Origin: Patescibacteria group bacterium
Lineage (GTDB): Bacteria; Patescibacteriota; Patescibacteriia; JACRDY01
Length of the DNA stretch: 64,000 bases
Direction of reading: 5' to 3'
NCBI GenBank assembly: GCA_041653535.1
Contig: JBAZFH010000005.1
Span: 12,012-76,011, forward strand
Shown here: in pieces, positions 4,553 through 59,688 of the stretch
Layout: every line of letters starts with the position of its first letter
Position numbering within the stretch: the first letter of the stretch is position 1
Notes under the pieces: model-generated
What the model was told of the DNA's origin: nothing
The model's input: the letters and a program-made list of their open reading frames with translations, nothing else
The model's database searches: none
Made by a program: the position numbers and the translations under genes

Positions 4553-4630
4553 TTATCATAGAATAAGCTGGTCATGCCCAAGGCTAGTACAACCACTAGC
4601 TGTCAAGCCACTAGCTCCTAGCCACTAATT

Positions 4631-9342: not shown

Positions 9343-9421
9343 CTTGCCAAAAACAATAAAATCATATATATTACTTGCAGTTTTTCCTAACCACTAACTA
9401 CTAATCACTAACCACTATATT

Positions 9422-10131: not shown

Positions 10132-10236
10132 GGAAACAAAATAACTTTAAAAAATAATCTCTGCCCAAATACCAGGATACCGGAAAATAAAAAAAGCCGA
10201 TGTCCCGATATTTTGACAGGTGGACGTAATGACTTT

Positions 10237-10926
10237 ATGAAACTACTTTCCCGTCTGGAAAAAAACATAGGTACCTCTTTCAAAAACCAAGATTTGCTTA
10301 AACAAGCCTTGGTTCATCGGTCATATCTCAATGAAAATCCGGGTTTTAGCCTCGATCACAATGAACGCTTGGAATTTTTAGGTGATGCTGTTTTGGAGTT
10401 AGTGGTTACCGAACATCTTTATAATAATTATCCCAACCCCGAAGGAGAACTGACTACCTGGCGCGCCTCGCTGGTAAACGCCAAAATGCTGGGTGGCATA
10501 GCAAAAAAACTGGAAGTGGAAGACTATCTTTTTCTGTCTAAAGGAGAATCAAAAGACAAAAATTCCAAAGCCAGGGATTATATTTTGGCCAATGCCTTTG
10601 AAGCTATCACCGGCGCTATTTACCTGGATGGTGGCTACGAAGCGGCAAAAAAATTCATTGACGAAAAAGTATTGCCGGAACTACCGGAAATTTTGGATAA
10701 AAAACTTTACGTTGACCCAAAATCACGTTTTCAAGAAGCAGCTCAAGAACACGCGGGGATTACCCCACACTACGAAGTAATACAGGAAACCGGTCCCGAT
10801 CACGCCAAAAAATTTGTTGTCGGAATATTTTTGGATAAGGAAAAAATAGCACAGGGAGAAGGTATGTCCAAACAAGAAGCCCAGGAAAATGCCGCGCTGG
10901 CAGGGTTGGAAGTAAAGGGCTGGTAA
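10237..10926 (+). CDS. rnc: ribonuclease III
   Basis: RNase III signature ERLEFLGDAVLELVVTEHLY plus a C-terminal dsRBD. Start at the ATG (MKLLSRLEK) behind an AGGTGGA SD; the track ORF starts at an upstream TTG. Confidence 0.9.
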   Translation: MKLLSRLEKNIGTSFKNQDLLKQALVHRSYLNENPGFSLDHNERLEFLGDAVLELVVTEHLYNNYPNPEGELTTWRASLVNAKMLGGIAKKLEVEDYLFLSKGESKDKNSKARDYILANAFEAITGAIYLDGGYEAAKKFIDEKVLPELPEILDKKLYVDPKSRFQEAAQEHAGITPHYEVIQETGPDHAKKFVVGIFLDKEKIAQGEGMSKQEAQENAALAGLEVKGW

Positions 10927-11021: not shown

Positions 11022-11122
11022 GGGGTGTTAGCTCAATGGTAGAGCAGTTGCCTCTTAAGCAATTGGTTAGAGGTTTGTCCCTTCGGGACATCTCCCGTAG
11101 GGAGACAAATCCTCTACATCCA
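11022..11122 (+). tRNA. tRNA-Lys(CUU)-like gene carrying a 32-nt insertion inside the T-loop and a degenerate 3' acceptor strand; possibly a pseudogene or an intron-like insertion
   Basis: Identical to the intact tRNA-Lys copy through the anticodon arm. The T-arm reads AGAGG-TT[tgtcccttcgggacatctcccgtagggagaca]AATCCTCT. The insert folds into two hairpins, one with a C(UUCG)G tetraloop. The 3' end ACATCCA mispairs with GGGGTGT. Confidence 0.4.
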
Positions 11123-11148
11123 AGACTGTTCATTATTAAATTTTATAT

Positions 11149-11220
11149 GGGGTGTTAGCTCAATGGTAGAGCAGTTGCCTCTTAAGCAATTGGTTAGAGG
11201 TTCAAATCCTCTACACCCCA
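11149..11220 (+). tRNA. tRNA-Lys (anticodon CUU), intact
   Basis: Acceptor GGGGTGT/ACACCCC, D-arm GCTC-AATGGTA-GAGC, anticodon loop CTCTTAA, T-arm AGAGG-TTCAAAT-CCTCT, discriminator A. Confidence 0.85.
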
Positions 11221-11240
11221 CTTTCAATAAAATTAACCGA

Positions 11241-11310
11241 CTTAAATAATTGGTTGGAGGTTTGTCCCTTCGGGACATCTCCCGTAGGGAGACAAATCCT
11301 CTACACCCCA
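11241..11310 (+). pseudogene. 3' fragment of a tRNA-Lys from the anticodon loop onward, carrying the same 32-nt T-loop insertion
   Basis: cttaaataattggttggaggtt[tgtcccttcgggacatctcccgtagggagaca]aatcctctacacccca. Lacks the 5' half. Confidence 0.35.
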
Positions 11311-11451
11311 CCAAAATAACATCACTGAGAAGTGGTGTTATTTTATTTTAGAATTGTCTCAATATTGACATATCGAAAAAAAGAAGTTAACCTTCAATGA
11401 TTGCTTATTTAAAAAACATACTTTTGACACTTAAACCAAGGAGGTAGCAAA

Positions 11452-13205: not shown

Positions 13206-13354
13206 ATTCACTCATTCAACCGGTCGCCTAAAAACGTCCGGTTTTTTGTTTAAAAAAGAAATAATTGTCATAGAGACGATTCATGAATTGCCCCTACAGA
13301 CATCAAAAAATAACCTTGCAAATAGCCAATTTTAGTGATAAACTGATAATTACT

Positions 13355-16300
13355 ATGACGGAAAACAATACCAAAAAAACTATACCCCAAAGCGAAGAAG
13401 AAATTCAGAAGTTTTGGCGGGATAATCAAATTTTCGAAAAATCAATAAATCAAGAAGCGCCGCATGGCGACTATATTTTTTATGATGGCCCGCCTTTTGC
13501 TACCGGCACGCCACACTATGGTCATATCGTGGCGAGTTTGATGAAAGACGTCGTCCCCCGCTACTGGACCATGAACGGCTGGCGAGTGGAGCGTAAATGG
13601 GGTTGGGACTGCCACGGTCTGCCGATCGAAAACATTGTCGAAAAAGAACTCGGCACTCATAGTAAAAAAGAAATCGAGGATAAAGTTGGTGTGGCCAAAT
13701 TTAACGAAAGCTGCCACAGCAAAGTCATGCTTTATGCTGACGAATGGAAAAAGTTTATCCCACGCCTCGGCCGCTGGGTTGATATGGAAGACGACTACAA
13801 AACCATGGACCAACGCTACATGGAAAGTATCTGGTGGGTGTTCAAACAACTCTGGGATAAAGGTTTGATTTACCAAAGCTACAAAGCAATGCATATCTGT
13901 CCGCGCTGCGAGACCACTCTTTCCCAATCAGAAGTCAGCGAAGGCTACAAAGATATCACTGATATTTCTGTGACAGTAAAATTTCAGTTAGTTGATGAAC
14001 CAAATACTTATATTCTGGCTTGGACTACTACGCCATGGACACTAGCCGGCAACATTGCGCTAGCTGTTGGCGCCAACGTGCCATATATTAAAGTAAAGTT
14101 TGATGATGGTAATTTTTATATTTTAGCTAAAGACACCGCGGAAAAAACTTTGACCAATGTTAAACATGAATTGGTTGAGGAACTAACCGGTAAAGATTTG
14201 GTTGGTAAATCCTATATCCCGCTTTTTCCTTACTACGACAAACCGGAAAATAAAGAACGCGGTTTTAAAGTCTACGCTGCTGATTTTGTTACTACTACTG
14301 ACGGTACCGGCGTAGTTCATATTGCTCCGGCTTTTGGCCAAGACGATATGAATCTAGGTATGGCAGAAAAACTGCCTTTCGTCCAACATGTTAATATGGA
14401 AGGTCGCTTCGCTCCGGAAGTTACCGACTTTTCCGGCGAGTTAGTCAAACCAATCGAAGATCCCAAAGCTACCGACCGCAAAATTATTGCTTGGCTGGAA
14501 AAAGAAGGTAAACTATTTGCGCAAGCAGAATACACTCACTCCTATCCTCACTGCTGGCGCTGCGACACTCCGCTACTCAACTACGCCACCTCTTCTTGGT
14601 TTGTTTCTGTGACCAAAATCAAAGACAAAATGTTGAAGGCAGCTAAAAAAATAAACTGGGTGCCGGCTTATCTAAAAGAAGGTCGTTTTGGCAAATGGCT
14701 TGAAGGCGCTACCGACTGGTCTATTTCTCGCCAGCGTTTTTGGGGTTCGGTCATGCCGATCTGGCAGTGTACCAAATGTAAAGAAAATCTGGTTTTTGGT
14801 TCGATCGAAGATTTGCGACAAGCAGCATTAGAACAAATTACTAAATTAATCTTGGTTCGTCACGGTGAAAGCCAAAAAAATGACAGTGGTGTTTTTGATT
14901 CTAGTCTCGATAGCACTTTTGAACTGACCAAAGACGGCATTAAACAAGCTAAGGCCGCGGCCAAAAAAATCGCCGCAGAAAATAAAGATAATAATGTCGT
15001 TATCTACGCTTCACCGGTGCTACGTACCAAACAGACTGCGGAAATTATCGCCAAAGAGCTTTCTCTTGGTATTAACTGGGCGCCAGAGCTAAAAGAAATC
15101 GACAACGGCAACTGGGATGGTAAAACAAAAGACGACCCAAACATTGCCGCTTCCCGAGCTGCTTACAAAAAATTAAACCTAGAAGAACAATACACCGCCA
15201 AACGCGGTGAAACCGGTGAATCATGGAAAGAACAAGAAGACCGAATGTATAACTTTGTCAGAACTGTTCTAGAAAAAGAAATTGGCAAAACCATCATTTT
15301 GGTTGGTCATCAGGGTCCGCTGCTTTATTTACTCAAATCGATTGAAGACTTGAGTCTAGAAAAGATCTACAAACTTTTTGACTCTCCGGCTTGGAATAGC
15401 TACGCCTATCCGATGAACGTTTATGTTAACCAAAAAACTCAAAAGCAGTTTGATCTGCATAAACAGACTGTTGATCCGATCGAAATCCGCTGTCCCAAAT
15501 GCGACCAACTGGCAAAACGTATTCCCGATGTACTCGACTGTTGGTTTGAGTCCGGGTCCATGCCTTATGCTCAACTTCATTATCCTTTTGAAAACAAAGA
15601 AAAGTTTGAAAGTAATTTTCCGGCAAAATTTATTGCCGAAGGCGTTGACCAAACTCGCGCCTGGTTTTATTACCTATTAGTTATCTCTACTGCCATCATG
15701 GATGAGGCGCCTTTTGAAAACGTGATTGCTAACGGTATTGTGCTAGCCGAAAACGGTCAGAAGATGAGCAAGCGGCTCAAAAATTATCCTGATCCAAACG
15801 CAGTTATCGATCGCTTTGGTGCCGACGCTATGCGCTACTACCTACTCACCTCTCCGGTGGTAAAAGCCGAGACACTAAACTTTTCCGAACAAGGCGTCGA
15901 GGAAACCTACAAAAAATTAATCATGATTTTATCCAATGTCTTTTCGTTTTATCAGATGTACGGTGCTGTCGAGACAGTTGCCGCCGATGACTCAACAAAT
16001 ATTTTGGATCGCTGGATACTGGCAAAACTAAATCTACTGATTGAAGAAACTACTAAACAAATGAACGCCTACGATCTAGTCGCCGCTTCCCGACCGATTA
16101 TTGAATTTGTCGACGAATTATCGACTTGGTTTGTCCGCCGCAGCCGCGATCGCTTCAAAGGCGATGATGCCACTGATAAACAAAACGCCTTGCAAACACT
16201 AAAATACGTTTTACTGACTCTAAGCAAAATCATGGCGCCGTTTACGCCGTTTATTGCTGAAAAAATTTACCGTGAAATTGGCGGACAAAAAGAATCAGTA

Positions 16301-16828
16301 CATCTGGACGTCTGGCCGCAGGTTAATAAAAAATTGATCGACCAAACATTACTTGATCAAATGACTCTAGCCCGACAAATCGTCGAAGCTGGACTAGCTG
16401 CTCGCGCGACTACCGGGATCAAGATTCGCCAACCGTTACTTTCTTACTCCACCACTCTGACCAAAAAACTTTCAGATGAACTGATTGATATTCTAAAAGA
16501 CGAACTAAACGTTTTGGATATTAAATTCGGTGAAGATAAACTTGATACTACTATGACACCGGAACTAAAAGAGCAGGGTTTGGTCCGCGAACTAGTGCGC
16601 TTCATCAACGCTTTGCGAAAAAATGCTGGCCTGACTATCTCTGACCGCGTGACCGTTTACTATCAAACCGACAACCAGGAAATTAACGACGTTTTCACCA
16701 AATTCTCCGACCAGCTCGCCAAAGACACTTTGGCTAGTAGTCTAAAAAATGAAAAAGCCGAAGTGGCGGAAAACTGGCAATCCGAAGTAAAAATTAATGA
16801 AACTAAAGTCTGGTTGGGATTAAAATAG
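13355..16828 (+). CDS. ileS: isoleucyl-tRNA synthetase (type 2/eukaryote-like) carrying an inserted histidine-phosphatase (RHG) domain
   Basis: HIGH motif (PHYGH), WSISRQRFWG, CWFESGSMPYAQLHYPFEN and KMSKR. Start at MTENNTKK aligns with type-2 IleRS N-termini. A roughly 198-aa insertion at 14846-15440 carries LILVRHGESQKN...YASPVLRTKQTAEII...ILVGHQGPL. Confidence 0.93.
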   Translation: MTENNTKKTIPQSEEEIQKFWRDNQIFEKSINQEAPHGDYIFYDGPPFATGTPHYGHIVASLMKDVVPRYWTMNGWRVERKWGWDCHGLPIENIVEKELGTHSKKEIEDKVGVAKFNESCHSKVMLYADEWKKFIPRLGRWVDMEDDYKTMDQRYMESIWWVFKQLWDKGLIYQSYKAMHICPRCETTLSQSEVSEGYKDITDISVTVKFQLVDEPNTYILAWTTTPWTLAGNIALAVGANVPYIKVKFDDGNFYILAKDTAEKTLTNVKHELVEELTGKDLVGKSYIPLFPYYDKPENKERGFKVYAADFVTTTDGTGVVHIAPAFGQDDMNLGMAEKLPFVQHVNMEGRFAPEVTDFSGELVKPIEDPKATDRKIIAWLEKEGKLFAQAEYTHSYPHCWRCDTPLLNYATSSWFVSVTKIKDKMLKAAKKINWVPAYLKEGRFGKWLEGATDWSISRQRFWGSVMPIWQCTKCKENLVFGSIEDLRQAALEQITKLILVRHGESQKNDSGVFDSSLDSTFELTKDGIKQAKAAAKKIAAENKDNNVVIYASPVLRTKQTAEIIAKELSLGINWAPELKEIDNGNWDGKTKDDPNIAASRAAYKKLNLEEQYTAKRGETGESWKEQEDRMYNFVRTVLEKEIGKTIILVGHQGPLLYLLKSIEDLSLEKIYKLFDSPAWNSYAYPMNVYVNQKTQKQFDLHKQTVDPIEIRCPKCDQLAKRIPDVLDCWFESGSMPYAQLHYPFENKEKFESNFPAKFIAEGVDQTRAWFYYLLVISTAIMDEAPFENVIANGIVLAENGQKMSKRLKNYPDPNAVIDRFGADAMRYYLLTSPVVKAETLNFSEQGVEETYKKLIMILSNVFSFYQMYGAVETVAADDSTNILDRWILAKLNLLIEETTKQMNAYDLVAASRPIIEFVDELSTWFVRRSRDRFKGDDATDKQNALQTLKYVLLTLSKIMAPFTPFIAEKIYREIGGQKESVHLDVWPQVNKKLIDQTLLDQMTLARQIVEAGLAARATTGIKIRQPLLSYSTTLTKKLSDELIDILKDELNVLDIKFGEDKLDTTMTPELKEQGLVRELVRFINALRKNAGLTISDRVTVYYQTDNQEINDVFTKFSDQLAKDTLASSLKNEKAEVAENWQSEVKINETKVWLGLK

Positions 16829-16910
16829 TAAATAGGAGGTAGTAAATAGTAGATAATAAAATATCTACCCACCACCTCCTAACCTCCTATCATCCTAACC
16901 TCCTATATTT

Positions 16911-20035: not shown

Positions 20036-21244
20036 ATGAACAAACCAGAACTACTCGCCCCAGCCGGCAGTTATGAAAAACTAAAAACCGCTCTCGCTTT
20101 TGGCGCTGATGCGGTATATTGCGGTCTACCTGATTTTTCACTACGCGTCAGGATCAACTCTTTTAATCTCAAAGACTTGGCCGAGGCAATCAAATACTGC
20201 CATGACCATAAAAAGAAAATATACCTGACTCTTAACATATATGCTCATAACCAGCATCTAAAAAAATTACCGGCGTATATCAAATTTCTCAAAGCTAACA
20301 AACCCGACGGCATTATCGTTTCCGATCCGGGAATAATCAAGATACTCAAAAAAGAATTGCCAAAGATTCCTTTGCATCTCTCTACCCAAGCTAACTGCAC
20401 CAACTGGCAAGCCGCCAAATTTTGGTACGAGCAAGGGATAAAAAGAATTATCCTGGCGCGCGAAGTGACTATTGCCGAGATCAAAGAGATTAGGAAAAAT
20501 GTGCCAAAACTCGAACTAGAATATTTTGTCCACGGCGCCATGTGTATGTCCTACTCTGGACGCTGCATCCTCAGTAAGTGGCTAACTGGTCGTAGCGCCA
20601 ATCTTGGCGACTGCGTGCAACCTTGCCGCTGGGGTTATCGCGTCAGTACCGATGACGAACGTGGCCAAGTCATGGAAGTCGAAGAAGATAAACATGGCAC
20701 TTATTTATTTAACTCCAAAGACCTTTGTCTGATCGGGCATTTGGCTGAACTAAAAAAAGCCGGCGTCACTAGTTTTAAAATCGAAGGCCGGGCTAAAAGC
20801 GCCTACTATGTTGCAGTGGTCGTCAAAGCCTATCGCCAGGCGATTGATAAAAAACAACCAATCAAAAACCTAGTCAAAGAACTAGGCACCCTGGCCAATC
20901 GTGGCTACACCACCGGCTTTGCTTTTGGAGCCGAAAAATGGGATAACAACTTCCAGATTTCTCATCAAAAATCGTCTTACCAATTTGTGGGTGAAGTGGT
21001 AAAATACAGTAAAGAAAAAGGCGCGACACTAATAGCTGTTCATAATGCCATTTACCGCGGAGAAACGGTAGAATTTATCACTCCTACTGGTAAAAACTTT
21101 AGGCAAAAGCTAACCAAAATCATTGATACCAAAAACGATAAGGAAGTCGCTTCTGCCCATGGTGGCCATGATCAAATTATCTCTATCAAAACAACCGAGC
21201 CTATTCCCGCTTTTTCAGTCCTCCGCAAAAAACTCAAATCCTAA
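20036..21244 (+). CDS. peptidase U32 family protein (YegQ/TrhP-like)
   Basis: PELLAPAGSYEKLKTALAFGADAVYCG and E..HGAMC..YSGRC motifs typical of the U32 family. Confidence 0.8.
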   Translation: MNKPELLAPAGSYEKLKTALAFGADAVYCGLPDFSLRVRINSFNLKDLAEAIKYCHDHKKKIYLTLNIYAHNQHLKKLPAYIKFLKANKPDGIIVSDPGIIKILKKELPKIPLHLSTQANCTNWQAAKFWYEQGIKRIILAREVTIAEIKEIRKNVPKLELEYFVHGAMCMSYSGRCILSKWLTGRSANLGDCVQPCRWGYRVSTDDERGQVMEVEEDKHGTYLFNSKDLCLIGHLAELKKAGVTSFKIEGRAKSAYYVAVVVKAYRQAIDKKQPIKNLVKELGTLANRGYTTGFAFGAEKWDNNFQISHQKSSYQFVGEVVKYSKEKGATLIAVHNAIYRGETVEFITPTGKNFRQKLTKIIDTKNDKEVASAHGGHDQIISIKTTEPIPAFSVLRKKLKS

Positions 21245-21848: not shown

Positions 21849-22799
21849 ATGCAAACCAGCGATGTCGTGGAACAAAAGATATGGGACGACTTTGTCACTG
21901 CTAACGGCAGTGAATTTTTGCAATCCTGGGACTGGGGCGTGCTGCAAGAAAGCCTAGGACGAAAAATCTGGCGCCTGGCAGTCACTGACGAAAACCAAAT
22001 TAAAGCCGTTGCACTGATAGTTAAACACCAACTGCCTTTTAAACAAAATTACCTCTACTGCCCGCGCGGACCGCTTACCACCGAACCGAAATATTTTGAA
22101 TATCTGGTCGAAAGAATCAAGGAACTCGGCAAACACGAAAAATCCACCTTCTGCCGTATTGAACCAATTTCCCCAACTATCAACTATCATCTACCACCTA
22201 CCAAACCCGTCCAACCCAAAACCACGCTCGTTTTAGATCTAACCAAATCAGAAGACGACATACTTAACTCTTTTCACCAAAAAACCCGATACAATATTCG
22301 CCTAGCTGAAAAACACGGAGTAACGGTTCGCGATGGTAGTGGCGACCAAGATTTTGAGATTTTCTGGAATCTGTTAACCAAAACCTACACCAAACAAGAA
22401 ATCTCCACCCACCCAAAAGAATATTATAAAAAAATACTCACTACCCCATACTCACTACTTGCTACTAAGCTGTTCATCGCTGAAAGCAACGGTATTCCTG
22501 TTGCCGCCAATCTCTGCTATTTCTACGGAGATCGCGCTACTTACGCTCATGGCGGATCGGATTACCAGTACAGAAACCTCATGGCGCCACATTTACTGCA
22601 GTGGCATCAAATCAAATGCGCTAAAGATGCCGGTTACAAAGTTTATGACTTTTGGGGAATAGATGAAAAACGTTGGCCCGGAGTAACTAGGTTTAAACTC
22701 GGATTTAATGGAAAAAGCGTCGACTATCCAGGAACGTTCGACATACCAATATCCAAAATACTTTATCCCCTATATAAACTAGTGAAGAAAGTTAAATAG
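21849..22799 (+). CDS. FemAB-family aminoacyltransferase (peptidoglycan bridge formation type)
   Basis: EFLQSWDWGVLQESLGRKIWRLAV and the overall length and pattern fit the FemAB/Lipid II glycyltransferase family common in CPR genomes. Confidence 0.6.
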   Translation: MQTSDVVEQKIWDDFVTANGSEFLQSWDWGVLQESLGRKIWRLAVTDENQIKAVALIVKHQLPFKQNYLYCPRGPLTTEPKYFEYLVERIKELGKHEKSTFCRIEPISPTINYHLPPTKPVQPKTTLVLDLTKSEDDILNSFHQKTRYNIRLAEKHGVTVRDGSGDQDFEIFWNLLTKTYTKQEISTHPKEYYKKILTTPYSLLATKLFIAESNGIPVAANLCYFYGDRATYAHGGSDYQYRNLMAPHLLQWHQIKCAKDAGYKVYDFWGIDEKRWPGVTRFKLGFNGKSVDYPGTFDIPISKILYPLYKLVKKVK

Positions 22800-39860: not shown

Positions 39861-39914
<54 letters not shown>

Positions 39915-41339: not shown

Positions 41340-41729
41340 AAATTAGTAGCTAGTGGCTAGCGACTAGCAACTAGTGACTGGCGATTTTTACTGCCAGCTA
41401 CCAACTGCCAGCTACCATTTTCTGTCCCTATTCTATGTAAAATTTAGGTAAAAGTCAATTTAAAAAATTTTAGTTAGTGTAAAAAATGGGCTAATTTGAC
41501 ACATTTATCTTTATATTTTATATCAAAAAACGCTATTGACAAAGATTGTCTAACTTGGTAGGCTGCTATGATAAATAGAATTTTGACAATTAAAATAAAG
41601 AATTGAAAAATGGAGGTGAAAAAGATAGTAGTCTGGCTTATTTAGAGCCAAAACTTTGTTCGTGCGTGTTCTTACAATATGTTCAGTGTCCAACTCCAAC
41701 AACCCATTCATGTACAAGGAGAAAGAAAA

Positions 41730-53390: not shown

Positions 53391-54058
53391 AGCTTAAGTA
53401 AGCAAGATGACCGCCCCCCACTTTCTATGTTTTATGTCTACATTTTAAAAAGCCAAAAAGACGACAAGCTTTATATTGGCTTTACTAGTGACTTAAAACG
53501 CAGATTTCAGGAACACCAAAATAAAGAGAATAAATCGACAAAAAACAGAACTCCTTTTATTTTGGTCTACTACGAATCCTATCGTTCAAAATCAGACGCG
53601 ATGAAACGGGAGAAAAATTTAAAACAGTTTAAAAACAGCTACTCTCATCTAAAAAAGCGTCTTGGCGATAGCCTTAAAACATAGAAAATGGGGGGAGGAA
53701 AGTCCGAACACCCCTCTGGCTGTAAAGCTAGAGTGACAAAGAGAGTCGCTAACGGCGACCGGGAGTAATCCTAGGGAAAGTGTCACAGAGACAATACTAT
53801 CCCCCACATATTATGTGGGGGACAAAGGTGAAAAGAGAAAAGGTGTATTTTTAGAAAATCATATGATTTCTAAAGACTGCTACTTTTCTTCCTCTTGGGC
53901 GACCAAGATGTGATGGTAAACCCTCTCTGGTGCAAGAGCCAATTTGGTTGCTCGCTTGATCCTGTCAGCAATGGCAGGACTAGATAGATGGTCATCCTCC
54001 CTCACATAATTTATGTGGGGGATGACAGAATTCGGCTTACCAGCTTGCTTAAGCAATA
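53391..54058 (+). ncRNA. rnpB: RNase P RNA (bacterial) with a roughly 270-nt insertion in P3 that encodes a GIY-YIG protein
   Basis: P4 5' strand GGAGGAAAGTCCG at 53695-53707. GGGAAAGTGTCACAGAGA (P10/11 region). 3' ACAGAATTCGGCTTA...CTTGCTTAAGC pairs with the 5' GCTTAAGTAAGCAAG as P1. Terminator at 54059-54093. Confidence 0.7.
53427..53684 (+). CDS. GIY-YIG domain protein (UPF0213-like, 85 aa) encoded within the P3 helix insertion of rnpB
   Basis: MFYVYILKSQKDDKLYIGFTSDLKRRFQEH is a GIY-YIG motif. The start codon sits in the 5' strand, and the stop codon in the 3' strand, of a 13-bp extended P3 stem (tttctatgtttta/taaaacatagaaa). Confidence 0.7.
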   Translation: MFYVYILKSQKDDKLYIGFTSDLKRRFQEHQNKENKSTKNRTPFILVYYESYRSKSDAMKREKNLKQFKNSYSHLKKRLGDSLKT

Positions 54059-54189: not shown

Positions 54190-54648
54190 ATGTTTGGGTT
54201 TTGTATTGCCCTGTTGATATTTGTTTTTAGTTTTATCTTCAACACCCTGTCTGAAGGCATCAGCTCAGCCGGACACTTCCTCTACATTTGGAATTGGGTT
54301 TTTGGCATCGGTAAAGTCGTACTTCTGAGTTTGGTCGCCTTCGGCATTACCGGTTTTATCGGTCTTGGCGGCGCTGGCGCCGCTAGCCAAAAATGGAGCT
54401 CGCGCGGTGCGATGATCCTAGGAGGACTGCTTGGCGCTGGCGCTGGGGGCGTGGTCTCGGGTCTGATCTTCATCAAGGCTTTGATCAAAAACGCACTGCT
54501 GATCCTAGGCGCTTACCTGATCACCCTCTCCGGCACCGCCAGTATGTCTTTTGATCAGTTCGACAAAACCAAACTGTTCGTCGGACTGGCAATAGTGGTC
54601 ATCGCCTTATTGTTATTCCGTAAAAAAAGTAAGGATTCATCCAAATAA
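54190..54648 (+). CDS. small polytopic membrane protein, paralog 1
   Basis: Shares ISSAGHFLYIWNWVF and IGAYLITLSGTASM(S/T)FDQFDKTKLFVGLAIV with 54847..55329. Each has its own copy of the promoter-like sequence ttattgacacttttaccaaaacctgataagctttt and its own terminator. Confidence 0.5.
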   Translation: MFGFCIALLIFVFSFIFNTLSEGISSAGHFLYIWNWVFGIGKVVLLSLVAFGITGFIGLGGAGAASQKWSSRGAMILGGLLGAGAGGVVSGLIFIKALIKNALLILGAYLITLSGTASMSFDQFDKTKLFVGLAIVVIALLLFRKKSKDSSK

Positions 54649-54846: not shown

Positions 54847-55329
54847 ATGAGTGACAAGATGTTAGGTTTTCTAATCGCAGCGATCGCATTTGTTGTCAAC
54901 AACCTTTTTTTCAAAACCCTACCCGAAAGCATCAGTTCGGCCGGACATTTTCTTTATATCTGGAACTGGGTCTTCGCCGGACTCAACGTTGCGTTGTCTG
55001 TTTGTTTCTCCCTTGGTTTAATCAACCTTACTGTCAACAGCACCGACGCTGATGCCGCGAAAGAAGCTACGAAAGCTATCAAAAATATGCTCCGAATCGG
55101 ATCCGGCGGCGTAATGTCCAAAATCAATTTCATCAAAATGCTGATCAGAAACACCTTGAGTATCATCGGCGCTTACCTGATCACCCTCTCCGGCACCGCC
55201 AGTATGACCTTTGATCAGTTCGACAAAACCAAGCTGTTCGTCGGACTGGCAATAGTGGGCGTTGCCTTATTCCTCTCTAAGAAAAAAGTCGTAGGGGTTG
55301 TCATGATCAATGACCGTGAAACCGCCTAA
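54847..55329 (+). CDS. small polytopic membrane protein, paralog 2
   Basis: See paralog 1. AAGGAGG SD. Confidence 0.5.
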   Translation: MSDKMLGFLIAAIAFVVNNLFFKTLPESISSAGHFLYIWNWVFAGLNVALSVCFSLGLINLTVNSTDADAAKEATKAIKNMLRIGSGGVMSKINFIKMLIRNTLSIIGAYLITLSGTASMTFDQFDKTKLFVGLAIVGVALFLSKKKVVGVVMINDRETA

Positions 55330-55385: not shown

Positions 55386-56375
55386 TTAAACCAACCCAAC
55401 AATCTCTCTCACCTCCGCCATAGTTTGACTAGCAATCTTTTGCGCGGTAGCGGCTCCCTCTGTCATTACCTTGTCGACATATTTACTATCTTTTTCTAAC
55501 TTTTTCCGGCGATCACGAAAGTCTTTAAAATAATTAGCGATATCATCGGCTAACTGCGCTTTGAACTCACCAAACTTTATCTTCTTTTGCTCTTTTTGTT
55601 TAAAGAAGTATTCTACCGTGTCGGGATGAGAAAAATTTTCGAGGAGTAGTAGTAGGTTGGTACCACCGACCGATTCTCCACTACCTTCGTCAGACACCGC
55701 GCGACTCAATTTCTTTTTGATTACTTCCGGGTCGTCGTTGATACCGATACAATGATTTTCACCCAAACTTTTACTCATCTTTTTCTCTGGAGTGAGCAGG
55801 CTCATTATTTTTGGAGTGTTAGTCAATACTTCTTTTGGCTCAGCAAAATAATCAGTCTTATACTTTTGGTTAAACTTGCGAGCCGCCAGACGAGTCAGCT
55901 CAACATGCTGTACCTGGTCTTGACCCACCGGCACTGCCAAAGCGTGATAAAGCAAAATATCAGCCGCCTGCAAAACGGGATAGTCAAAAAGACCCATGTT
56001 AATATTTGCTTTTTGTCGAGCTGCTTTGTCTTTAAACTGTGTCATCCTTTCCAGCTCCGCTACTGGCAATAAAGTATTAAAAATCCAAGCAAGCTCGGTA
56101 TGACCAGTTACTTGTGACTGAAGAAAAATCGTCGATTTACTCGGATCGATACCAGCTGCCAAATAATCCATGATCAACCCTCGAGAACGAGCGCGAAGCT
56201 GCTCCGGATCACTATTTTCTGTCATTGCATGGTAGTCGGCAATAAAGAAAAAACATTGATATTTGGAGCTGTTTTGCAATTCAACAAAGTTTTTGAGCGA
56301 ACCGAGATAATTGCCCACGTGCAGTTCGCCACTGGGTTGAATACCGGAAACTATGATTGGTTTGATTGTTTTCAT
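55386..56375 (-). CDS. trpS: tryptophanyl-tRNA synthetase
   Basis: PSGELHVGNYLG (HIGH-type), KMSKS, and the overall TrpRS pattern. Start at MKTIKPII; the upstream extension of the track ORF runs into the repeat array. Confidence 0.9.
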   Translation of the reverse strand: MKTIKPIIVSGIQPSGELHVGNYLGSLKNFVELQNSSKYQCFFFIADYHAMTENSDPEQLRARSRGLIMDYLAAGIDPSKSTIFLQSQVTGHTELAWIFNTLLPVAELERMTQFKDKAARQKANINMGLFDYPVLQAADILLYHALAVPVGQDQVQHVELTRLAARKFNQKYKTDYFAEPKEVLTNTPKIMSLLTPEKKMSKSLGENHCIGINDDPEVIKKKLSRAVSDEGSGESVGGTNLLLLLENFSHPDTVEYFFKQKEQKKIKFGEFKAQLADDIANYFKDFRDRRKKLEKDSKYVDKVMTEGAATAQKIASQTMAEVREIVGLV

Positions 56376-56400
56376 ATGTTTTAATTTTAGCTTTAATTCC

Positions 56401-56580
56401 TCCCCCTGCCAAGGGGGAGATGTCGCGAAGCGACAGAGGGGGTGAATGCGACTCCCTGCCAAGGGGGAGATGTCGCGAAGCGACAGAGGGGGTGAATGCG
56501 ACTCCCTGCCAAGGGGGAGATGTCGCGAAGCGACAGAGGGGGTGAATGCGACTCCCTGCCAAGGGGGAGTCGCTTCCTGT
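56401..56580. repeat. 50-bp GC-rich tandem repeat, 3.6 copies, in the trpS 5' leader
   Basis: Unit tccctgccaagggggagatgtcgcgaagcgacagagggggtgaatgcgac. Contains hairpins ctccc-tgccaag-gggag and gtcgc-gaa-gcgac. Sits between the T-box terminator and the trpS SD. Confidence 0.85.
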
Positions 56581-56599
56581 AGTTGTTATCAGTGGATAC

Positions 56600-56895
56600 A
56601 AAAAAATCCCCCGTTCTTAGCTAGAAATATAAACTTCTAGCCAAGGACGAGGGATTTACCCCGCGGTACCACCTTGATTAACAAAAAAATACCAGTAAAC
56701 GGTATCTGTCTGTTCACTTTACCAACTCTGTTTCGCATCAACAAAACGACATTAGTTATCCTTTGATTACGGAGGACGCCGGATCGCCACTAACGCAGCA
56801 ATCATCCTGTCTTTTTTAAGACCACTCTAGACCCAGTCCCCATTTTATTGGAGATCCAAAGTTTGGATTTTAGAAAACATCTTAAGTTCTTCTAT
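56600..56895 (-). promoter_or_regulatory. T-box riboswitch leader of trpS (with intrinsic terminator)
   Basis: On the minus strand the T-box sequence AATCAAGGTGGTACCGCGGGG (consensus AAUUAGGGUGGNACCGCG) lies at reverse complement of about 56650-56672. It is followed by a long terminator hairpin and a U7 run (reverse complement of 56601-56650). The downstream gene is an aaRS. Confidence 0.7.
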
Positions 56896-56899
56896 TAAT

Positions 56900-56928
56900 A
56901 TCTTAATAGAAATAAAGAAAAAAGTCAA
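56900..56928 (-). promoter_or_regulatory. Sigma70-like promoter for the T-box/trpS transcript (TTGACT-17-TAAGAT on the minus strand)
   Basis: Reverse complement of 56923-56928 is TTGACT and of 56900-56905 is TAAGAT, with a 17-bp spacer. Confidence 0.45.
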
Positions 56929-57040
56929 CAATCAAAATCTATTGACCGTTTCACTATCTATTGTTAATATAACTAGTCAGCTGCTAATGGCTGACCAACA
57001 ACCGTCCGGCTCGTGATGAGCTTAAAAAAGGAGGTTATAG

Positions 57041-57441
57041 TGGAACCAAAAAGGTTACAAAGATTTCTCCGCGAGTTTCCATGGCTTTATGGGATTAAGC
57101 TTGAATGGGACAGCAAAAAAGTAATTTCGATTGTAGTCAAAACTTTTACTGTCCAATCAGTTCAAAACAGGTCAGTCTACGACCTGCGACGTGTCGAACA
57201 AAGAGCTTGGTTCCTCCTCTCTTCAAACTTCGGCGGCTGGAAACAACGAGTCGTCGAAGTCAGTATCCAAACAAATGGTTACTTTGATTCGATAATCAAG
57301 AGAGTCAAAAACAAATTCCCAGGCGAGGAAATTGACGCCATCGTCCTCCGGTGGAGAGTCCCTCCCTTCGTGGACACCGAAGACTATGTAATCATCAAAC
57401 GGCCAAAGCGGCAATCGATCGAAAAATTTTTCAAAGACTAA
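57041..57441 (+). CDS. hypothetical protein (133 aa)
   Basis: AAGGAGG SD followed by a GTG start at 57041; the ATG-initiated track ORF includes the SD. Terminator at 57449-57480. Confidence 0.45.
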
Positions 57442-57775: not shown

Positions 57776-57849
57776 GAAAAACAGAAAACCCCGCTCACTC
57801 GAAACGGGGTTATTTTTAAATTCTAACCACTAACAACTAACCACTACCC

Positions 57850-59688
57850 CTAAACTTCAATCAACACCGGCAATATCATCGGCCGACGGTTGGTGCGTTT
57901 CCAGAGAAATTCGCCAATCTCGTTACGAATTTTATTTTTGATATAGTCTTCAAAAGCTGGCGAGGTATGGTCTTTGTCTTTGAGCAAATTGCGCACCCGC
58001 TTGCGGGTTTCCTCGACTATATTTTTATTTTCTTTCATGTAGATAAAACCGCGGGAAATTAGGTCTGGATTTTGTACTAGCTCACCGGTTTTTTTGCGAA
58101 TAGTGACAATCACGACCAGCATACCGTCTTCGGCCATCATCCGGCGATCACGCAATACTATCTCGGAAACATCGCCTACACCGAGTCCGTCAACAAAAAC
58201 GTATTCGGCCGATATCTTTTCTGCGGTAACTTTGGCGGCATCTTTGGTCAGCTCAACCACCTGTCCATTATCAGCAATCAAAACATTACTTTCTTTTATC
58301 CCAGTTGAAACAGCCAATTCACCGTGAATCCGCAACATATAGTGATTGGCATAAATCGGCATATAGAATTTCGGCCGAATCAAACTAATTAACTCTTTGA
58401 GATCTTCTTGTTTGGCATGACCACCGGCGTGAATATCCATCATTTTATAGTGGATCACTTTGGCGCCATTACGATACAGAGTGTCCTTGAGATTCTGAAT
58501 AGTGCGCTCATTACCCGGGATCACCGAGGAAGAAAACACCACCACATCGCCTTTTTTGATATGAAGATATTTATGTTCATTGTTAGCCATACGCATTAGG
58601 ACGGCGTTGCGCTCGCCCTGGGCGCCAGTACAAATAATCATCAATTTGTTATCCGGAATGTTTTTGGCTTCCGCCCAGTCAACCATAGTATTTTTACCAA
58701 ACTTCATGTAGCCGAGACTATGAGAAACATCTAGATTGTCGTTTAAACTACGCCCTTCAACTAGAACTTTTCGCCCATGACGTTCCGCCAAACTGATAAG
58801 GAGTTGGACGCGGGAAAGGTTGGAAGCAAAAGTACCGACAATCATACGACCCTGGACGCTGCCGAAAACTTTTTCCATTTCTCGGTCGACATCACTTTCA
58901 GAAAGCTGATGACCGGGATGCTCGGCATTAGTGCTGTCAGCCATAAGTAGAGCCACGCGCTGATTACCGATAGAACGCAAACGATTTATATCTATTGGTT
59001 TTTCATTGACAGGATGTTTATCAAATTTGAAATCTCCGGTGTGGACGATGTTTCCCACCGGGGTTTTAATCACTATGCCATAACTATCCGGTATCGTATG
59101 GTTGACTCGAAAAAATTCTACCTGAAAAGCGCCGCCCAGTTTCAACCGGGAATTTTCATTAATCTGATAGATATTGAGTTTGGGAGCGTCGGCATATTCC
59201 TCCTGCCGTTTTTTGATAATCCCGGCCGTGAGCGGTGCGGTGTATATTACCGGATTGCCTATTTCTTTCATCAAATGAGGAATCCCGCCGATATGGTCAT
59301 AGTGCCCGTGGGTAATAATAACACCGCGGATGTTATTGATTTTGTTTTTTAAATAAGTAACATCAGGAATAATATAATCAATACCAGGCATATCTTCTTC
59401 AGGAAATTGCAGACCCATGTCAACGATAATTATGTCGCTGTCGTATTCAAATAAAATACAATTACGACCGACTTCTTCCAGGCCACCGAGAGCGATTATT
59501 CTCAGTTTGTTCACCGAATTTTTATGAGCGCCGACCAATGCTTTGGCCGCTAAATTATATTTTCCTTTAGTATCATTTTTTCCGGACTTGAAACCAGGCG
59601 CAGCTTCTTTATGCCAAAAACGTTTCTGTTTTGTGGCTCGGCCGTGTCTTCTACCGGGGTTTTTCGTACCTTCTTTTTTAGGAATCAT
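57850..59688 (-). CDS. rnj: ribonuclease J (beta-CASP metallo-beta-lactamase RNase)
   Basis: GVIITHGHYDHIGG (HxHxDH), the beta-CASP region and a C-terminal domain; length 612 aa. Confidence 0.9.
   Translation of the reverse strand: MIPKKEGTKNPGRRHGRATKQKRFWHKEAAPGFKSGKNDTKGKYNLAAKALVGAHKNSVNKLRIIALGGLEEVGRNCILFEYDSDIIIVDMGLQFPEEDMPGIDYIIPDVTYLKNKINNIRGVIITHGHYDHIGGIPHLMKEIGNPVIYTAPLTAGIIKKRQEEYADAPKLNIYQINENSRLKLGGAFQVEFFRVNHTIPDSYGIVIKTPVGNIVHTGDFKFDKHPVNEKPIDINRLRSIGNQRVALLMADSTNAEHPGHQLSESDVDREMEKVFGSVQGRMIVGTFASNLSRVQLLISLAERHGRKVLVEGRSLNDNLDVSHSLGYMKFGKNTMVDWAEAKNIPDNKLMIICTGAQGERNAVLMRMANNEHKYLHIKKGDVVVFSSSVIPGNERTIQNLKDTLYRNGAKVIHYKMMDIHAGGHAKQEDLKELISLIRPKFYMPIYANHYMLRIHGELAVSTGIKESNVLIADNGQVVELTKDAAKVTAEKISAEYVFVDGLGVGDVSEIVLRDRRMMAEDGMLVVIVTIRKKTGELVQNPDLISRGFIYMKENKNIVEETRKRVRNLLKDKDHTSPAFEDYIKNKIRNEIGEFLWKRTNRRPMILPVLIEV

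Follow-up and report, generated by a model that had tools for sequence, protein, structure and literature searches.

In a Patescibacteria bacterium, a perfect tandem array of 50-nt units separates a T-box-type leader from the start codon of trpS, the gene for tryptophan--tRNA ligase, and the question raised by this locus is whether the array takes part in the control of trpS or is only a passenger in its leader. The locus lies on the minus strand of contig JBAZFH010000005.1, part of a metagenome-assembled genome (MAG) of the Candidate Phyla Radiation (CPR). A stretch of 64,000 nucleotides of this contig (positions 12,012 to 76,011) was analysed and is called the window here; all coordinates without a locus handle (L-number) are those of the window. 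A preliminary description of the same DNA had proposed that the array might add translational control by sequestering a Shine-Dalgarno (SD) sequence, or else be a recently expanded minisatellite in an untranslated region. From our analysis the array is probably an insertion of a dispersed hairpin repeat, capable of triplex formation, that has recently been amplified in a T-box-type trpS leader and has no dedicated role in the T-box mechanism or at an SD. The repeat family is a more interesting object than the trpS locus itself.

Tandem Repeats Finder reported the array at 56404-56569, with a period of 50, 3.3 copies, 100% matches and no indels; no second array of this unit is present in the window. 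The exact 50-mer CTCCCCCTTGGCAGGGAGTCGCATTCACCCCCTCTGTCGCTTCGCGACAT was present three times in the window, with none expected in shuffled sequence, and the fourth copy was partial (16-18 nt). With degenerate flank similarity included, the array spanned about 56573-56395, which fits the roughly 3.6 copies counted in the preliminary description. Each 50-nt unit held two hairpins (A and B), as had been described, and the array was rich in G+C (65%, versus 43% for the window) and folded more stably than shuffled sequences (z -3.7). The extra hairpin B at its 5' end was preceded by only the 3' half of a hairpin A, the internal copies ended in GGGAGUCGC, like clostridial variants, and module 3 carried a full-length hairpin B (CUCCCCC-UUGGCA-GGGGGAG, -23.2 kcal/mol). 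A coding function was rejected, the period of 50 nt not being a multiple of 3. The copies abut and no spacers lie between them, which bears out the earlier statement that this is not a CRISPR array. The fallback reading of a recently expanded minisatellite was also essentially right.

The unit was not confined to the trpS leader. A covariance model run with filters off found exactly five modules in the 64 kb, three in the trpS leader and two at a tRNA-Lys(CTT) cluster, where a sensitive search within the window gave a 21-nt resemblance to the trpS unit at 11076 and 11263. The insert there, TGTCCCTTCGGGACA-TCTCCCGTAGGGAGA, is a clean 30-nt double hairpin in the T-loop with no target-site duplication, and the intact tRNA-Lys gene between the two pseudo-copies (11149-11221) is without it. 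The tRNA-Lys insert and the trpS unit share TGTCsCTTCGsGACATCTCCC...GGGAG, with a compensatory C:G to G:C swap. The cluster as a whole (11022-11312, plus strand) consists of a degraded full-length copy (11022-11118), the intact gene and a 3' half (11250-11312); it looks like the relics of a duplication or integration at a tRNA gene already carrying the repeat. A tRNA-derived or intron-like nature of the repeat was not supported, the insert being a clean double hairpin.

Outside the window, the 20-nt core GTCSCTTCGSGACATCTCCC gave at least 120 matches in species-representative genomes, versus about 4 by our own chance estimate; the sample was seeded by exact patterns, and these counts are lower bounds. 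The flanks of the matches, which the search left unconstrained, were conserved as well (CCCCCTCT-GTCsC-TTC-GsGAC-A-TCTCCCCC-loop-GGGGGAGA). Hosts included many Rhizobiaceae, Oscillospiraceae/Ruminococcus and other Clostridia, Bacteroidales, Dehalococcoidia/Chloroflexota, Sphingomonas, Acidimicrobiia, several CPR lineages and two contigs binned as archaea. The module was also found in 22 IMG/VR contigs and in five gut 'Bacteriophage sp.' records; the viral open reading frames (ORFs) of 250-326 aa that contain it had no Pfam match and look spurious. Loci from Oscillospiraceae, Abditibacteriales and Rhizobium matched the trpS unit over 30-34 nt at 100%. The array unit belongs to a repeat family that is dispersed across phyla and has members at the tRNA-Lys cluster too, which the preliminary description missed. 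The module matched no Rfam family at E < 10 (leader) or at E < 0.05 (12 sample loci), and a literature search by exact sequence or peptide of the repeat returned no match.

About three quarters of the core matches lay outside long ORFs, and the remainder within ORFs in either orientation. The short form of the module seen in CPR genomes lay within a Dus gene (L008, 4530-5597), whose Pfam match was split in two, and was recognised by eye in an mnmA-like gene (L075, 352-1674) and a PGM/PMM-like gene (L131, 1148-2566). It was also present in a 1124-aa ORF (L126, 1-3372) and upstream of a nusA-like gene (L093), and the modules at L075 and L126 were flanked by AT-rich direct repeats of the AATTTCCAA type. 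Modules in direct tandem were found at L104 and L118, and in some other genomes two modules stood inverted to each other at a distance of about 100-170 nt. At L021 (1-300, minus strand), from an Oscillospiraceae MAG, a T-box leader with its terminator was followed about 60 nt on by modules in the opposite orientation, with the G-rich strand in the leader RNA; this contig ends inside the repeat.

The module is built of a C-tract (Y1), a covarying mini-hairpin (A), a second C-tract (Y2), a loop and a G-tract (R). When matching constrained only the flanks, the middle varied in sequence but was almost always a perfect 4-6-bp hairpin. When 37 distinct modules were aligned, hairpin A proved to be 97% paired, with compensatory changes in four of its five pairs, and its covariation score of 0.272 (0.102 when shuffled) was reached by none of 500 shuffles. 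Y1, which the test left unconstrained, mirrored Y2 with a mean match of 5.05 of 7 positions in 38 distinct pairs, compared to 4.01 +/- 0.15 for shuffled pairs (0 of 5000 reaching it). Six different non-consensus Y1/Y2 variants were perfectly mirrored, and among the 26 pairs with a non-consensus Y2, Y1 fitted its own Y2 better than the consensus in 18 and worse in 4. Module 3 exemplifies the three tracts with CCCCCTCT as Y1, TCTCCCCC as Y2 and GGGGGAG as R. Since R is Watson-Crick complementary to Y2 and Y1 mirrors Y2, the covariation is three-way, and it fits a putative intrastrand triplex of the pyrimidine motif on the C-rich strand or of the purine motif on the G-rich strand. Hairpin A on the G-rich strand reads GTC-GCGAAGC-GAC and contains GCGNAGC, a DNA mini-hairpin that is exceptionally stable (PMC13037366).

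The leader into which the array is set is very likely a genuine T-box-type attenuator, with GAC or UGG as specifier candidates. The T-box sequence GGTGGTACCGCG has a single occurrence in the window (minus strand, 56673-56662), and within AAGGUGGUACCGCG (56675-56662), which agrees with the conserved T-box sequence (AGGGUGGNACCGCG), it makes up the 5' side and bulge of the antiterminator; the bulge reads UGGU. The 5' arm of the terminator is the 3' strand of the antiterminator, making the two mutually exclusive, and a U7 run follows. The T-box sequence and terminator hairpin reported earlier upstream of trpS are both upheld by these features. The Rfam model RF00230 gave a match on the minus strand (39.9 bits; E 2.9e-7 with the leader as sole target, 2.3e-5 when the whole window was run against all families), but one that stayed below the gathering threshold of 93, at which no T-box was found in the window. 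A trpS T-box of a GC-rich organism (L143) likewise scored only 43.8 bits, so that scores below the threshold are normal in T-boxes distant from the seed set. High posterior probability was confined to the 3' half of the leader; the model also aligned an F-box-like CCGUAA at 56772-56767.

The probable T-box is non-canonical, with an atypical Stem I. A Stem-I-like region with a UUAAGA/UCUUAA stem lies at about 56885-56816. In the RF00230 alignment Stem I had low posterior probability, its K-turn and lower stem were deleted and its distal part was a 43-nt unaligned insert, and neither an AG bulge nor a distal loop was recognisable in the trpS leader. Specifier columns were calibrated on the trpS T-box at L143, where eight unpaired columns read GAA-U-UGG-A and the codon occupies columns 5-7. 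The same columns of the window leader read AAA(A)-GAC-A, with the Asp codon GAC at 56811-56809, rather than the UGG specifier that the preliminary description had expected in Stem I. A UGG is present at 56824-56822, on the 3' side of the Stem-I-like hairpin above the UUAAG/CUUAA stem, in a non-canonical setting where the next base is U and the opposite 5' strand is very long (about 20 nt). No tRNA-Trp gene was found in the window, and the other loci examined contained none of CPR origin. The leader is known from one sequence, and its nearest relatives (68-76% identity; L001-L006, L229, L230) are without a T-box to which Stem I could be aligned.

In the mechanism that we propose, the promoter, atypical Stem I, T-box sequence, antiterminator and terminator would together form a transcription-attenuation leader before trpS. 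The repeat module would then be a secondary insertion between the terminator and the start codon, amplified head to tail to three full and one partial module, presumably by slippage or because its own direct repeats of 16 nt recombined unequally. The array stands outside the T-box mechanism and is transcribed only after the termination decision. The features of the leader, the array and the tRNA-Lys cluster are listed in Table 1.

Table 1. Features of the trpS leader and of the two short modules at the tRNA-Lys cluster, in window coordinates.
Feature	Position	Strand	Description
Promoter-like site P1, T-box leader	56900-56928	minus	TTGACT 56928-56923, 17 nt, TAAGAT 56905-56900; consensus match 9/12
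T-box-type leader, RF00230 alignment	56640-56907	minus	39.9 bits (permissive filters)
Antiterminator	56643-56675	minus	AAGG, bulge UGGUACC, GCGGG...CUCGU, CCUU; high posterior probability in RF00230 alignment
Intrinsic terminator hairpin and U-run	56600-56657	minus	arms of ~23 bp; platform fold -46.3 kcal/mol
Extra hairpin B, array 5' end	56548-56573	minus	perfect 9-bp stem GCGACUCCC-CCUUGGCA-GGGAGUCGC; -20.1 kcal/mol, z -3.84
Repeat module 1	56500-56541	minus	C-tract, hairpin A, C-tract, loop, GGGAG; 47.9 bits, E 7e-15
Repeat module 2	56450-56491	minus	identical to module 1; 47.9 bits
Repeat module 3	56395-56441	minus	best family match, 49.5 bits, E 2e-15; next to trpS
Promoter-like site P2	56384-56412	minus	TTGGCA 56412-56407, 17 nt, TAAAAT 56389-56384; consensus match 10/12
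trpS coding sequence	55386-56375	minus	329 aa, ATG at 56375; PF00579 (tRNA-synt_1b), E 1.2e-69
Short module TGTCCCTTCGGGACA-TCTCCCGTAGGGAGA	11070-11108	plus	in T-loop of degraded tRNA-Lys(CTT) copy; 31.2 bits, E 5e-9
Short module, second copy	11257-11295	plus	inside element with only the 3' half of tRNA-Lys; 31.2 bits

That the CUCCCCC tracts sequester an SD, GGGGGAGG, and so control translation of trpS, as the preliminary description had suggested, is hardly credible to us. The motif is present at 56406-56399, and the hairpin that it closes in the last module is stable (about -23 kcal/mol) and part of the centroid structure. Its end is however 23 nt from the ATG at 56375, whereas SDs in the window are AAGGAG sequences 7-10 nt from the start, in about a third of the crudely called genes, and this spacing largely refutes the model. 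The remaining genes, trpS included, have AT-rich leaders without an SD; none was found within 13 nt of the trpS ATG, and the ORF list offered no in-frame alternative start nearer to GGGGGAGG. Sequestration is thus not supported, because the G-tract is far from the ATG and is itself the 3' arm of hairpin B of module 3, an integral arm of a module that also occurs across the family, in tRNA pseudogenes and in ORFs in either orientation. In every fold it was paired with the CUCCCCC of the last repeat while the AUG region stayed unpaired, and the folds of the leader gave no alternative pairing partner that could open the hairpin on a signal. The locus is a cautionary case: what looks like an SD/anti-SD switch, with C-rich hairpins and a tract of G close to the start codon, consists of arms of a dispersed repeat. 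The loop of the same hairpin could matter in another way. If its TTGGCA served as a -35 box, the repeat would form part of a hybrid promoter giving a leaderless or near-leaderless trpS mRNA, which would bypass the T-box; we regard this as possible, though on the unlikely side, and it would be compatible with a repeat insertion, as its consequence. The ends of insertion sequences and of miniature inverted-repeat transposable elements (MITEs) can create outward promoters. Site P2 is the best sigma-70-like match in 56300-57100, and its -10 box ends 8 nt before the trpS ATG. Start-proximal -10 boxes (at least 5/6 matches, ending 4-10 nt before the start) were found at 5 of 38 genes (13%), none of them with an SD, as against 1.7% of random positions, which suggests that leaderless mRNAs may be used, or even be common, in this genome. 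Such sites stand before the starts at 20036 (+), 30415 (-), 37757 (-) and 59688 (-), where the -10 box ends 6-9 nt before an SD-less start; examples are TTGAAA-18-TATTAT before a 2405-aa ORF and TTGATT-17-TAAAAT before a glycosyltransferase gene. On the other side, these are matches to the sigma-70 consensus only and CPR promoter rules may differ, AT-rich DNA near starts easily yields -10-like hexamers (regional shuffles gave 1.2 +/- 1.0 sites), and the T-box platform still has an intact appearance, unexpected for a leader that is bypassed. The insertion may have made a bypass promoter, and a promoter donated by the element may thus drive trpS without regard to the T-box.

In read-through transcripts the hairpin array might protect the 5' end, as a stabiliser or a roadblock that hinders 5'-3' decay or processing, a role that we consider quite unlikely. 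It would agree with the stable fold of the array, with the RNase J (57850-59688) and RNase III (10213-10926) genes encoded in the window, and with the analogy of REP elements, among whose hypothesised roles is the stabilisation of mRNA (PMC3733652). The family shows no orientation constraint, however, the L021 leader RNA has the G-rich strand, and the array is absent from the leaders of all relatives. Both promoter donation and RNA stabilisation are open possibilities that do not exclude a repeat insertion. An assembly artefact, in which the array or its copy number would result from short-read mis-assembly across a dispersed repeat, is highly unlikely. The perfect repeat of 166 nt is about as long as a read, and contigs elsewhere end inside such repeats (L021, L053, L114), but the unique flanks join cleanly on both sides, at both ends of the array the outermost copy departs from the internal ones in a structurally sensible way, and tandem modules are also present in other assemblies (L104, L118).

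An amplified insertion of a dispersed repeat in a T-box-type leader is the explanation that we prefer. It is favoured by the five modules at two unrelated loci of the window, the trpS leader and tRNA-Lys, and has a precedent in intrastrand triplex repeats, which are abundant, conserved and intergenic and have no strand bias (PMC4666352). We infer from these data a recent expansion, a selfish or structural nature of the repeat at the DNA level, with triplex capability, and the absence of a dedicated regulatory role. Several points weigh against this explanation. No strain-level relatives were found, and recent expansion and copy-number variability are deduced only from the 100% identity of the copies, whose number could be mis-assembled in a short-read MAG. 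Among the 34 large ORFs scanned in the window, which at 64 kb is a small part of the genome, there was no transposase or RAYT. Three perfect copies and a well-placed promoter-like site leave room for a selected function, and the predicted triplex is deduced only from covariation.

The 329-aa TrpS product is 100% identical to an NCBI entry for 'tryptophan--tRNA ligase' of a 'Patescibacteria group bacterium', and the next-best proteins have 73-79% identity; the closest other TrpS for which a locus was available has 76%. Exact-protein look-ups (TrpS in its 329-aa and 358-aa forms, P0001) returned no other contig, and a metagenome scan with TrpS gave, among the matches listed, only relatives of at most 71% identity and no strain variants. 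Among 90 loci of TrpS relatives (L001-L006, L127-L206, L229-L231 and others) a T-box sequence upstream of trpS was present only at L143, and the repeat module was in none of the trpS leaders; both features are therefore lineage-specific. In this CPR bacterium trpS has a leader of the T-box type that close relatives lack. The closest relatives have, upstream of trpS but on the other strand, a tRNA-like gene (GGGTGTGGGGGTAGCCTGGTGGCGAGAGTAGCC...) that contains a long insert rich in G+C (L230, 230-345; L005, 1-110; L006, 2291-2361), of which the L006 copy had a weak match to the tmRNA clan.

Some other features of the window were noted. A class I synthetase resembling IleRS (13283-16828, plus strand, 1181 aa) has a His_Phos_1 domain inserted between the two halves of its catalytic domain (residues 522-698, E 1.3e-34). 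Tandem heptamer repeats (CCTGTCT x7.7, CCACTAG-type, CTAACCA, ACCTCCTA) stand before many genes that have no SD and extend to an ...ACTAATTT ATG context, and these arrays (39861-39914, 41357-41417, 4593-4627, 9387-9417, 16823-16905, 22173-22204 and 57823-57846) are a recurrent leader architecture in the window. Two adjacent plus-strand ORFs for paralogous small membrane proteins (54190-54648 and 54847-55329) have a common C-terminal GAYLITLSGTASM(S/T)FDQFDKTKLFVGLAIV, and the second had no Pfam match. An 85-aa ORF at 53427-53684 (plus strand; MFYVYILKS...YIGFTSDLKRRFQEH), a candidate GIY-YIG nuclease domain, overlaps with its 3' end the start of the RNase P RNA gene (53654-54055).

Set beside known systems, the locus resembles several of them in part. 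Minisatellites or variable number tandem repeats, of which mycobacterial MIRU are an intergenic example, have head-to-tail copies like the trpS array, with its 50-nt period and perfect units by a gene start; unlike them, the array draws its unit from a dispersed family and not from one specific locus. With T-boxes of RF00230 the leader has in common the T-box sequence in the antiterminator bulge, the exclusive terminator with its U-run, the F-box-like CCGUAA and the position upstream of an aminoacyl-tRNA synthetase gene; it differs in its low score, the missing K-turn and lower stem, specifier columns that read GAC and not UGG, and its rarity among the loci of relatives (1 of 90). The MITE pattern was not found, as the trpS array is direct and the insert in the tRNA T-loop has no duplication.

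REP, BIME and REPIN elements (PMC3733652, PMC2817692) are, like the module, small, GC-rich and palindromic, occur as singletons, as head-to-tail or inverted dimers and in tandem clusters, and lie in some cases within ORFs; the roles proposed for REP elements are structural or post-transcriptional (PMC3733652, PMC2817692). The REP motifs GTAG and CGTC and their complements are absent from the 50-nt unit, and the short CPR form has GTAG in the loop of hairpin B, not at an end. The module moreover has two hairpins and mirror tracts where REP elements have one palindrome, no RAYT gene was among the window ORFs scanned, and REP families are surveyed per species or genus whereas the module is near-identical across phyla. 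Rickettsia palindromic elements (RPEs) are longer than the module, at about 100-150 bp. They are likewise small palindromic elements found in frame in protein genes (PMC3733652), which recalls the modules in the Dus, mnmA-like and PGM/PMM-like genes and in the tRNA-Lys pseudo-copy; they were described from Rickettsia and show no sequence relation to the module. By description only, the abundant, intergenic and palindromic rhizobial members of the family can be set beside RIME, Sm-repeats and AB/C palindromes, which are conserved in sequence and structure and 'of unknown function' (PMC2573895).

The closest counterparts are the abundant and conserved intrastrand triplex repeats described by Holder et al. 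in 2015, such as TMECO of E. coli with the consensus CCCTCNCCC-N3-6-GGGNGAGGG-N3-GGGNGAGGG (PMC4666352). Repeats of this type lie between genes with no preference for either strand; they form triplexes in vitro, and have been tied to local genomic instability (PMC4666352). As in class II of ITxF/TMECO, the G-rich strand of the module has the three blocks pyrimidine-purine-purine, with mirror-related purine blocks, and like TMECO the module is G/C-rich, multi-copy and mostly intergenic, has no fixed orientation and sometimes occurs in tandem or inverted pairs. Its sequence differs from the TMECO consensus (CCCTCNCCC...GGGNGAGGG), the second 'loop' consists of a T and a covarying mini-hairpin of 13-15 nt instead of 3 nt, and the triplex stem would be of 7-8 nt instead of 9. 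The TMECO triplex was shown in vitro and that of the module is read solely from covariation. The triplex-repeat finder of Holder et al. allowed loops of 1-6 nt only (PMC4666352), and hairpin-bridged modules would probably have been missed by it.

One could go further and see in the modules an undescribed cross-phylum class of 45-50-nt hairpin-bridged triplex mini-elements, spreading between distant lineages and rewiring trpS through a donated -35 box, which we think rather unlikely. A covarying GNA-type mini-hairpin would then clamp a triple helix of 7-8 triplets (Y.R-Y or R.R-Y), insertion into hairpin loops, leaders, tRNA genes and ORFs would be clean, and the promoter downstream of the T-box would be leaderless. 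If structure and mobility held true, the intrastrand triplex repeats known from TMECO would be extended to a much wider and apparently mobile class, and there would be a concrete model of how DNA structures reshape small genomes. Compared with TMECO, the range of the module takes in Firmicutes, Bacteroidales, Chloroflexota, CPR and viral contigs, and ORFs and a tRNA pseudogene are among the places where it has been inserted. From its covariation pattern, the dispersed family from which we derive the trpS array is predicted to be a variant, bridged by a hairpin, of the intrastrand triplex repeats already described; the range of its hosts is unusually wide.

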